Of a stretch of 41,822 bases of DNA, positions 34,460 through 36,724 are shown one piece after another. This DNA comes from a virus. Taxonomy: Duplodnaviria > Heunggongvirae > Uroviricota > Caudoviricetes. A program made the position numbers and the translations under genes. Position 1 is the first letter of the stretch; each line of letters begins with the position of its first letter. The notes under the pieces are model-generated. The model saw only the letters and a program-made list of their open reading frames with translations, was not told the origin of the DNA and searched no databases. The stretch is taken from IMG/VR virus record IMGVR_UViG_2897346870_000006, one strand, 5' to 3'.

Positions 34460-34497
34460 TGCTACTTAAAATAGCAGAATGCAACTACTTAAAATAG
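34460..34497. promoter_or_regulatory. Operator-like repeats in the cro-cI divergent region (candidate OR sites)
   Basis: TGCTACTTAAAATAGCA (34460-34476; 5-bp inverted arms) and a second CTACTTAAAATAG at 34485-34497; related to a perfect palindrome TTGCTACTTTAAGTAGCAA at 36706-36724. Confidence 0.45.
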
Positions 34498-34535
34498 AAA
34501 TGACTAGCGTATGTGATGCGAGTAACCTTCTACCT

Positions 34536-35240
34536 ATGGTAGAAGAACAGAAGTATCCAGATTTCGCCAAGAGACTAAACGAGCTAATGACAAACAAGGG
34601 AATTTCTGTCACCCAACTCAAAAGTCTTGTGGGCGTTACATATGAAATGGCGCGGCGATACACAATCGGCGCTGCGAAGCCTCGTGCCTCTGTCATGAAT
34701 AAACTTGCATTGGCTCTGGGGGTATCAGCTTCATATTTAGAATATGGTGTTGGCGAGAGAGAAGGATGTAAGGAAATGGCAAGCATCCCCAATCCAACAA
34801 AACCCGATGTATACAGGATAGAAGTTTTGGATCTTAGCGTTAGCGCAGGACCTGGAACCTATATGCTTTCAGACTATGTTGATGTGCTCTACGCCATTGA
34901 GTTCACAACAGAGCATGCCCGTTCTCTTTTCGGTAATCGTTCTCAAGATGATATTAAAGTTATGACTGTAAATGGCGACAGCATGTCCCCTACTCTAGTT
35001 TCCGGAGATCGACTGTTTGTCGACATTTCTGTTCGCAACTTCCAAACTGATGGTGTTTACTCTTTCGTTTATGGTAAGACGTTCCACGTTAAACGTCTAC
35101 AAATGCAAGGCAACAAACTCGCCGTTCTTTCGGATAATCCAGCCTATGAGAAATGGTACATTGATGAGAAGTCCCAAGATCAACTTTATGTTATGGGCAA
35201 AGCATTGATACACGAATCAATTAAATACAACCGGCTTTAG
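34536..35240 (+). CDS. cI: CI-type prophage repressor (HTH plus S24 LexA-like peptidase domain)
   Basis: N-terminal HTH (LNELMTNKGISVTQLKSLVGVTYEMARRY), C-terminal GDSMSPT serine motif and KRL lysine; start placed at MVEEQ (34536) because the ORF-track start at 34479 lies within the operator repeats; the exact start is uncertain. Confidence 0.8.
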   Translation: MVEEQKYPDFAKRLNELMTNKGISVTQLKSLVGVTYEMARRYTIGAAKPRASVMNKLALALGVSASYLEYGVGEREGCKEMASIPNPTKPDVYRIEVLDLSVSAGPGTYMLSDYVDVLYAIEFTTEHARSLFGNRSQDDIKVMTVNGDSMSPTLVSGDRLFVDISVRNFQTDGVYSFVYGKTFHVKRLQMQGNKLAVLSDNPAYEKWYIDEKSQDQLYVMGKALIHESIKYNRL

Positions 35241-35410
35241 TTCTTCGTTTAGACTATAGAACTAAAGGTGAAAAAATAATATTTATCAAGCAAGTGCTAT
35301 TACTAATAGTTGTTTTACTCTCTTATTTTTATTAAACATTATCATTAACAATATAAAATAATCACCCAGCGTAAATTACAATATGCTGGGGGTCGAAAGG
35401 ATAGAGAAAT

Positions 35411-36487
35411 ATGACAAAATCAATTTGTTTTTTTAATCATAAAGGTGGGGTAAGTAAAACCACAACAACCTTCAATCTTGGATGGGCACTTGCGGATGAA
35501 GGCAAGAAAGTATTGATGGTTGACCTTGATTCGCAATGTAATCTAACAGGAATGGTTCTTGGCTATGAAAAGATTGATGAGGGTTTAGATTCTTTTTATT
35601 CTAGCAGAGATAACTTAACTCTTGGACCTATTGTAGAATATTTGATTAATGGCGGACAACCTGAAGCATACCTTGAAAAAGAAACGGGAAAATTACACCC
35701 TACACTGCATGAAAACCTTCTGCTTCTTCCCGGACATTTAGATGTTTCGGACTTAGATTCACAGATAAGTGTTTCTCTAAAAATTGCTGCTGGTATTCCT
35801 GCTACAAGAAATATACCAGGGAACCTGCCAAAAATATTACAGCTAATCGCCATGAAGAATAATATTGATTACATTCTTTATGATCTCAGCCCTAATGTTG
35901 GAGGTTTAAATGAAGTAGTTCTCATGTCAAGTGACTATTTTATCGTACCTGTAGCTCCAGACTTTTTTTGCTGGCAAGCAATTCGCTCTCTCTCAAAAAA
36001 TATACCTCGCTGGCACAAAGAATTAGCATTATTTAAAGAAAATAATGATGGTAACTCTTCACAATCAATTAAAAATGCACCGCAGTTTCTAGGTATGATT
36101 CAGCAGAGATACAGGCCGCGTAAAGGAGCACCTGTAAAATCTTTCGAAAAATGGATGGCAGCTATCCGTGATGCTGTTGATTCGATCTTAGTGCCAAATC
36201 TAGAAAAAATTACCTGCATAATTCCACGAGATAAAGTGCAACATGCAATTAACAAAACAACAGTCAGTGGAGATTTATCAGCCTATGATCTTGCGCATAT
36301 TTCCGATTTCAACTCATTAATCGCAATAAGCCAACAACTAGCGACACCTGTTTTCTCCATCAGTGATCAGCAAATTCGCGATTCAGGGCAATTTGGGCAT
36401 GCCTTAAATACAATGAAATCAAGCAGAGACGCCTTTAACGAACAATTTAAAGGGCTGGCTCAACGAGTTCTAGAACTTACAAAGTAA
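35411..36487 (+). CDS. Orphan ParA/MinD-like ATPase with unassigned C-terminal domain (358 aa), in the rexAB position
   Basis: Deviant Walker A KGGVSKTT, A' motif VLMVDLDSQ, Walker-B-like YILYDLSP; AT-rich gene; no ParB-like partner or centromere-like repeats nearby. Confidence 0.75.
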   Translation: MTKSICFFNHKGGVSKTTTTFNLGWALADEGKKVLMVDLDSQCNLTGMVLGYEKIDEGLDSFYSSRDNLTLGPIVEYLINGGQPEAYLEKETGKLHPTLHENLLLLPGHLDVSDLDSQISVSLKIAAGIPATRNIPGNLPKILQLIAMKNNIDYILYDLSPNVGGLNEVVLMSSDYFIVPVAPDFFCWQAIRSLSKNIPRWHKELALFKENNDGNSSQSIKNAPQFLGMIQQRYRPRKGAPVKSFEKWMAAIRDAVDSILVPNLEKITCIIPRDKVQHAINKTTVSGDLSAYDLAHISDFNSLIAISQQLATPVFSISDQQIRDSGQFGHALNTMKSSRDAFNEQFKGLAQRVLELTK

Positions 36488-36494
36488 TGCATGT

Positions 36495-36522
36495 GCCCGG
36501 CCGCATAACCGGGCTTTACTCT
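36495..36522 (+). terminator. Intrinsic terminator downstream of the ParA-like gene
   Basis: GCCCGG-ccgcataa-CCGGGC followed by TTTACTCTTCTTTCT. Confidence 0.5.
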
Positions 36523-36672
36523 TCTTTCTCCCTGATTAATCTCATAAAAAACTCCCTCCTCATAATTCACTATGCTCAATACCTACTCCAACTTCGTGCG
36601 ATATTTTCAGTTTACAGCATAGTAAATCAGCAAAAACATTTAACTTTCAATTAATTATAGAAAAATCATAGA

Positions 36673-36724
36673 CAACAACAAATATCTACTTTTTGTTGTT
36701 GATTTTTGCTACTTTAAGTAGCAA
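36673..36724. promoter_or_regulatory. AT-rich hairpin plus perfect palindrome (candidate OL operator near pL)
   Basis: Inverted repeat CAACAACAAA/TTTGTTGTTG (36673-36682 and 36692-36701), then the 9-bp-arm palindrome TTGCTACTT-T-AAGTAGCAA (36706-36724) sharing TGCTACTT with the OR-like repeats; a CATAAT -10-like hexamer follows. Confidence 0.4.

Follow-up and report, generated by a model that had tools for sequence, protein, structure and literature searches.

Which DNA sites control lysogeny in a lambdoid prophage, and does a palindrome far beyond the repressor gene belong to the same switch as the motifs beside it? The locus that raises this question lies in IMG/VR virus record IMGVR_UViG_2897346870_000006, a stretch of 41,822 nucleotides (hereafter the window) from a lambdoid Escherichia coli prophage of the SfV/CPS-53/e14-like mosaic type. 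Here a cro-like gene (minus strand) and a cI-like repressor gene (plus strand) diverge from a 106-bp intergenic region, the lambdoid gene order, and a gene for a ParA-like ATPase follows cI. A sequence-only reading of this DNA had noticed two copies of a motif, 23 bp apart, between cro and cI, and a perfect palindrome about 2.2 kb away, past the ParA-like gene. It proposed that these are the right and left operators (OR and OL) of a switch laid out like that of phage lambda. The analysis reported here finds both elements and, with a probability of about 0.8, comes to the same view: sites with a CTACTT core are OR and OL of a lambda-type CI/Cro switch, in a lambda-like layout, with the ParA-like gene in the rex position.

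Proposed operators on both sides of the repressor gene

The motif CTACTTAAAATAG occurs exactly at 34462-34474 and 34485-34497, 23 bp from start to start, between the cro-like and cI-like genes. With one mismatch allowed, its sole additional match in the window is at 36709-36721, within the palindrome; none is expected (100 shuffles). The palindrome, TTGCTACTTTAAGTAGCAA, is perfect over 19 bp (36706-36724); in the 41.8 kb, just one other perfect palindrome has arms of at least 9 bp. A palindrome with such arms is present in ~47% of block shuffles, so significance is placed in the shared motif rather than in the palindrome alone. The 17-mer TGCTACTTNAAGTAGCA, allowed up to three mismatches, is found in the window only at 34460-34476 (O1, one mismatch) and 36707-36723 (OL1, none).

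O1 contains the literal octamer TGCTACTT, and so does each arm of the OL palindrome; the second cro-cI copy, O2, differs here and has AACTACTT. All sites share a core that can be written CTACTT, or CTAC-N5-GTAG. Scanned with at most one mismatch, the latter has six matches in the window, five of them in the two regulatory regions. The scan exposed two sites beyond those listed earlier: O3 (34530-34542) and OL2 (36686-36698). OL2 aligns with the reverse complement of O2, and sits in a conserved island. OR therefore contains several related dyads overlapping predicted divergent promoters, and a cluster of the same specificity lies at a predicted early-left promoter distal to cI; both features belong to lambdoid switches.

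Conservation was followed in a comparison set of 59 IMG/VR loci of ~10 kb each, scored with up to three mismatches. About 50 related prophages have the same CI DNA-binding domain (CI N-terminal domain at least 62% identical where scored, on representative loci). In nearly all of these loci, the ~10 kb contain two strong sites and no more. The first lies 76 bp ahead of the cI ATG, the second 0.8-2.5 kb past the cI stop, after variable cargo. Loci of other immunity types, a negative control, contain zero CTACTT-type sites. Four E. coli relatives have a CI ~85-95% identical and other genes after cI; in these the 17-bp site recurs downstream of the cargo, in a ~45-bp island (TCTACTTTTTGTTGTTGATTTTTGCTACTTTnnGTAGCA) between otherwise diverged flanks. 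A one-genome-per-species collection yielded just two distant loci.

Relatives also reveal how the two regions are related. BLAST matched OL (36682-36727) to relatives' OR in reverse complement. Together, OL and OR (on the reverse strand) are paralogous cassettes of ~46 bp, each composed of a weak site, TTGnnn, a 17-bp operator, and nAnnAT. Their register is precise: the final two T's of the weak site open the TTGnnn (-35) hexamer; the strong 17-mer follows 2 bases on; and its last two bases open the nAnnAT (-10) hexamer. In a tabulation of 27 distinct OL and 19 distinct OR cassettes, the TTG of the -35 and residues A2 and T6 of the -10 are invariant, and in register, in every one. These hexamers define predicted promoters pR and pL. 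The sequence-only reading had made its proposal hinge on a pL-like promoter near 36700; conservation places one at 36699-36727.

Palindromes that change with the CI N-terminal domain

In some relatives the CI C-terminal domain is 83-94% identical to that of the window, the N-terminal domain only 24-36%; these loci carry other palindromes in the same layout. Three such groups were distinguished: TTAAC-N5-GTTAA, with three OR sites and two OL sites; GAACT-N3-AGTTC, with three OR sites and a two-mismatch copy directly before a leader shared with the window; and TACCT-N3-AGTA, with sites in both OR and OL. Including the CTACTT group, in which the recognition-helix region VTYEM(A/V)RRYT is conserved, there are four specificity groups. 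These differ in both N-terminal domain and palindromes, as heteroimmune phages do. True operators would be expected to covary with the CI N-terminal domain, as the palindromes do in these sequences.

The boundaries of the exchanged DNA agree with this pattern. In phage PhiR49_1, both flanks match the window at 96-99% identity, whereas cro and cI are different; homology is lost at 34162 and picks up again at 36745. The palindrome thus lies inside the exchangeable immunity module (cro, OR, cI, ParA, OL), which spans 34163-36744. Its end (36744/36745) is ~20 bp past the OL palindrome, and resembles that of a classical imm region. The exact module is present in 108 of 5,426 complete E. coli genomes; with related versions counted in, the total is 205. 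Conserved islands, paralogous cassettes, tracking of the CI DNA-binding domain, and position inside the immunity module all speak for the proposed OR and OL.

These features suggest a model for the switch. CI, and presumably also Cro, would recognise 17-bp dyads with the half-site nnCTAC(T/C)T. Transcription from pR would lead toward cro, and that from pL rightward, away from cI. At each promoter the strong site occupies the spacer, so bound repressor would extend over the entire spacer and onto the edge of each hexamer; the weak site, 23 bp upstream, overlaps the -35. CI dimers on strong and weak sites, probably cooperative, would occlude RNA polymerase at both pR and pL. The cI mRNA is probably leaderless, and O3 would lie over its start, allowing negative autoregulation by CI or cI shut-off by Cro. 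The ParA-like cargo probably is read through from the cI promoter up to the terminator at 36495-36514. Finally, pL would transcribe a structured leader with a boxA-like element, cross an antisense accessory (moron) cassette, and run toward yfdP and yfdQ.

Difficulties and alternative explanations

Several observations weigh against this model. The predicted pR and pL match the sigma-70 consensus at only ~7 of 12 positions, and a consensus promoter scan of the window reported neither; hence their assignment from conservation instead. (The scan returned TTAAAA-18-TAAAAT across O1 and O2, at 34466-34495, along with AT-rich matches in the cargo. By eye the best pL -10 was CATAAT, 36725-36730; it was rejected, being 20 bp from the -35 and not conserved in relatives.) O2 and OL2 are weak, with at least four mismatches, and could be incidental parts of the promoters. 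A third OL site was sought with CTAC-N5-GTAG, and two only were found; lambda has three, although the class does not require them. O3 overlaps the cI start codon and first codons, which confounds its conservation. The spacing from O2 to O3 is 45 bp versus 32-33 bp in different specificity groups, so an activation geometry of the lambda kind is not established. Lastly, many of the ~50 relatives are near-identical, which reduces the effective sample to ~27 distinct OL cassettes and ~10 cargo classes.

The palindrome could instead be an RNA hairpin or terminator, or the non-functional remnant of a duplicated OR, with no pL beside it and with the early-left promoter nearer yfdP. The weak consensus match of pL, missed by the scan, would fit such an arrangement. 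So would the minus-strand gene and terminator between palindrome and yfdP, and an STnc100-like element (37499-37722) that could mark a separate transcript. However, the palindrome is followed by no U tract, and a real terminator-like site lies 190 bp upstream; the TTG and the A2 and T6 residues stay in register across 27 cassettes while adjacent sequence diverges; a structured leader with compensatory changes begins within ~20 bp downstream, in the window and in many relatives, heteroimmune ones included; and heteroimmune groups have operators of their own at the same position. This explanation is therefore unlikely.

Less likely again is that the sites serve mainly the Cro-like (YdaS-family) protein, or some other regulator, and that CI binds elsewhere. 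Covariation cannot tell CI from Cro because cro and cI are exchanged together, and the palindrome at 34438-34454 hints at other binding sites. Yet in the characterised lambdoid switches (lambda, 434, and P22), CI and Cro use the same operators; the arrangement at both early promoters, two sites spaced 23 bp apart, is the signature of cooperative CI binding; and no other repeated dyad is common to OR and OL.

Least probable, and rejected here, is that 36706-36724 is a parS-like or autoregulatory site of the ParA-like ATPase: partition sites often are palindromes beside par genes, and this one lies 220 bp downstream of a ParA-family gene, but no ParB or adaptor gene adjoins that gene to make up a ParABS system, the same palindrome and its 45-bp island are kept in relatives without ParA (those with two-gene, three-gene, or other hypothetical cargo), and the site goes with the CI DNA-binding domain rather than with the cargo, and has sequence relatives in the cro-cI intergenic region.

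Features of the locus

Table 1. Genes, proposed operators, predicted promoters, and RNA elements in and around the immunity module, in window coordinates.
Feature	Position	Strand	Remarks
CII-like gene	33586-34248	-	leftward of it, ymfM-like and replication genes (-)
cro-like gene	34166-34429	-	87 amino acids (aa); YdaS-family helix-turn-helix (HTH); Pfam YdaS_toxin, 2.2e-11
Palindrome CCTCTGAAATTCAGAGG	34438-34454		perfect; over cro Shine-Dalgarno sequence and predicted pR start
Predicted pR	34456-34484	-	-35 TTGCAT (34484-34479), 17-bp spacer, -10 CATCAT (34461-34456)
O1 (OR1)	34460-34476		TGCTACTTAAAATAGCA; strong; occupies pR spacer
O2 (OR2)	34483-34499		AACTACTTAAAATAGAA; weaker; 23 bp from O1; 2-nt overlap with pR -35
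Candidate pRM	34500-34528	+	ATGACT (34500-34505), 17 bp, TAACCT (34523-34528)
O3 (OR3)	34528-34544		TTCTACCTATGGTAGAA; within perfect palindrome 34527-34545
cI-like repressor gene	34536-35240	+	234 aa; Pfam HTH_3 and Peptidase_S24; PHROG 4
ParA-like P-loop ATPase gene	35411-36487	+	358 aa; Pfam AAA_31 and CbiA; PHROG 164
Intrinsic-terminator-like hairpin	36495-36514	+	closes cI-cargo unit, before OL
OL2	36684-36700		ATCTACTTTTTGTTGTT; only left half-site good; 23 bp from OL1
Predicted pL	36699-36727	+	-35 TTGATT (36699-36704), 17-bp spacer, -10 CAACAT (36722-36727); rightward
OL1	36707-36723		TGCTACTTTAAGTAGCA; perfect operator in 19-bp palindrome; occupies pL spacer
Structured pL leader RNA	36741-36802	+	conserved, ~62 nt; starts ~10 nt after predicted pL start
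boxA-like AGCTCTTTAACAA	36834-36846	+	one mismatch to rrn boxA; ~110 nt downstream of pL
Replaceable cassette	36845-37424	-	inverted repeats 36845-36870 and 37399-37424
Cassette gene	36872-37375	-	PHROG 1244
yfdP	37858-38220	+	followed by yfdQ
Integrase gene	40659-41822	+	right of yfdP and yfdQ

A proposed third operator and control of cI

Three specificity groups have a CI that starts MV-, and in each of them the third OR site has the A of the cI ATG at its centre. In the window this site is part of the perfect palindrome CTTCTACCTATGGTAGAAG (8+3+8 bp). Each group spells a half-site of its own through the ATG and the synonymous second codon: CTACCTATGGTAG, GAACTCATGGTTC, and TTAACTAATGGTTAA. 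None of the three has a Shine-Dalgarno sequence ahead of the cI ATG; all have a -10-like hexamer, whose end is 6-7 nt short of the ATG. The geometry is not universal, for in the fourth group, with a CI that starts MK-, the third site lies ~20 nt before the ATG.

Hexamers of the candidate pRM are conserved, and the spacer between them is variable; the TTAAAA-18-TAAAAT match across O1 and O2 is a rival candidate for this promoter. Transcription from the candidate pRM would start at A34536. This suggests that the cI mRNA is leaderless, as in lambda, and that O3 acts at +1. It is possible, at somewhat under an even chance, that this third OR operator, centred on the first base of a leaderless mRNA, mediates autoregulation by occluding the start point of transcription and translation. 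If so, the start point itself would be occluded, unlike in lambda, where upstream promoter elements are. Such control, together with a two-site OL and a protein-free structured pL leader, would amount to a distinct and widespread enterobacterial switch architecture; and the rex-position cargo, the orphan ParA-like ATPase included, would be candidate prophage defence genes.

Variable cargo between cI and OL

The interval from cI to OL holds at least 10 classes of cargo in relatives, with all main open reading frames (ORFs) co-oriented with cI and a G+C content of 0.36-0.45. Examples include two ParA variants; sets of 115+135, 120+210, 244+246, and 94+214+143 aa; and a single 344-aa ORF. In Klebsiella relatives (two loci, 4860-5987) the slot holds a HicA/HicB toxin-antitoxin pair, and elsewhere it holds many unannotated gene sets. 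This variety fits a hotspot for defence and accessory genes. For the window's own cargo, the ParA-like protein scores far below every NCBIfam equivalog cut-off, and in PADLOC has just a P-loop-level match to candidate PDC-M28B. Neither resource gave a specific function for this protein or for the minus-strand cassette gene.

In being co-oriented with cI and terminated before OL, the cargo occupies a position like that of rexAB. The cI-to-N interval has been described as a hotspot of mosaic diversity, with rexAB there in lambda and bstA as a further occupant; such cargo presumably uses the promoter of the repressor (PMC8585504). The sequence-only reading had placed the ParA-like gene in the cI operon, and co-transcription with cI is plausible. 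In its favour are the shared orientation, the lack of a terminator-like site between the two genes, and the terminator that follows; moreover, the cargo of some relatives begins just 16 bp past cI. On the other side, the 170-bp gap between cI and the ParA-like gene is AT-rich and has promoter-like hexamers, so an independent promoter is possible. Across the cI stop (35237-35270, plus strand) an AT-rich 10-bp inverted repeat, CTTTAGTTCT...AGAACTAAAG, was seen by eye; it lacks a U tract and does not resemble a terminator.

Insertion sequences (ISs) interrupt the immunity module in several genomes, for example IS3 in H40 and IS1A in H54. In another relative, L065, what was first suspected to be an inversion of the segment containing OL and the adjoining gene proved to be an IS1 inserted between the ParA-like gene and OL (target 36622-36630). 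An avian pathogenic E. coli (APEC) strain has a related prophage of the same immunity type integrated in an F-like plasmid of 205 kb (NZ_CP126947.1).

The predicted pL leader and the antisense cassette

The predicted pL leader spans 36737 to ~36850. For its structured element RNAalifold gave 15 predicted pairs, four with compensatory changes, and the same element follows different operators in four heteroimmune relatives (L001, L060, L061, and L069). A search of Rfam at the gathering threshold found nothing, leaving the element without an Rfam family; below that threshold the sole match was an STnc100-like one further downstream. Could it be a put-like RNA, common to phage HK639 or repeated on the pR side? 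A covariance model of the leader matched a single copy in the window, with none on the pR side, and did not match the HK639 putL region; this idea was therefore dropped. The leader RNA may be an antitermination or processing element.

Downstream, the boxA-like sequence directly follows a hairpin that also terminates the minus-strand gene. A boxA-like site is found at +71 or +111 from OL in 19 of 54 relatives, some having CGCTCTTTAACAA. The pR side showed no boxA, and an N-like gene was not found either.

According to the sequence-only reading, the gene flanked by inverted repeats lies in the pL leader. It does lie downstream of pL. It is, however, on the opposite strand, with a terminator of its own (36833-36814) immediately beyond the left repeat arm, in a cassette that comes after the conserved leader. 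The inverted repeat (26 nt, 85% complementary) bounds a slot in which relatives carry other cargo between the same junctions. By its arrangement the cassette is a second moron slot, which any pL transcript would cross in antisense, and does not belong to the leader.

The inverted repeat also contains a GGATATCC-centred motif. Upstream of the minus-strand gene this motif forms direct repeats (37402-37424 and 37435-37457) reading TTGTTGTTGGGGA(T/A)A(T/A)CCAG within the region 36845-37457. Between the cassette and yfdP, on the plus strand, lies the STnc100-like element, a full-length match of 40.3 bits (E=1.8e-6) versus a gathering threshold of 47. It overlaps a long TTG-start extension of the minus-strand ORF, which favours the shorter gene listed in Table 1.

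Gene context

Genes of the CII-like and replication functions lie on the cro side of the switch; yfdP, yfdQ, and the integrase gene lie on the cI side. The cro-like gene belongs also to PHROG 35 (transcriptional repressor), and PGAP calls an identical gene a transcriptional regulator. Arms of the CCTCTGAAATTCAGAGG palindrome, ahead of cro, co-vary in relatives (CCTCTA..TAGAGG); it could be an anti-Shine-Dalgarno hairpin or a further protein-binding site.

The cI ORF is open from 34479, and the start at 34536 is that chosen by PGAP in related and identical E. coli prophages. Its product comprises an N-terminal HTH and a C-terminal S24 autopeptidase domain, with SAG, GDSM, and VKRL motifs in the translation. 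By analogy with LexA and lambda CI, these motifs are those expected of a repressor that undergoes RecA-stimulated autocleavage. A PDB sequence search with CI gave no match at E<=0.01.

Comparison with known systems

With an operator and promoter map for this immunity type, homo-immunity and hetero-immunity between prophages can be predicted. The map also flags the cI-to-OL interval as a cargo hotspot for defence genes, including an orphan ParA-like ATPase. Moreover, the natural pairs of operator and DNA-binding domain, on a near-constant C-terminal scaffold, could serve as orthogonal repressor parts. The operator strings were searched for in full-text literature; the one paper returned, on a snoRNA, was irrelevant, and no published description of these operators was found.

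The cargo hotspot just downstream of the repressor gene, known for rexAB and bstA (PMC8585504), has its counterpart here: variable, low-GC cargo, co-oriented with the repressor gene and ended by a terminator. The difference lies in the ParA-like protein, which has no known defence function.

The closest annotated layout is that of phage HK639 (HM208537), whose CI C-terminal domain is 75% identical. Its annotated order runs: pR, cI, three unknown genes, a terminator, a small minus-strand gene, a putative pL, a structured leader RNA (putL), and early genes. Its CI N-terminal domain is only 38% identical, its operators differ, and its putL is missed by the covariance model of the window leader.

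Lambda itself has the order cro, OR, cI, rexA, rexB, timm, OL/pL, and the likeness to it extends through the whole module: cI and cro diverge around a multi-site OR; operators are 17 bp long and spaced at 23-24 bp; a second operator cluster covers pL ~2.2 kb off, past accessory genes co-oriented with cI, with a terminator before OL; CI has an S24 autocleavage domain; and the cI mRNA is leaderless, here probably so. The differences are in the parts. The operator is unrelated, with a CTACTT half-site in place of lambda's TATCACCGC. OL has two recognisable sites versus three, and the promoter spacer is taken up by the strong site. O3 has its centre at the cI start, whereas lambda's O3 lies upstream, over the pRM -10 and -35. 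Cro is of the YdaS family, and the cargo is a ParA-like ATPase, not rexAB. An N homologue or nutR was not found here, and pL is followed first by a gene on the opposite strand. The immunity type is an uncharacterised one, and its layout is ordinarily lambda-like, an expected variation on the lambda paradigm.

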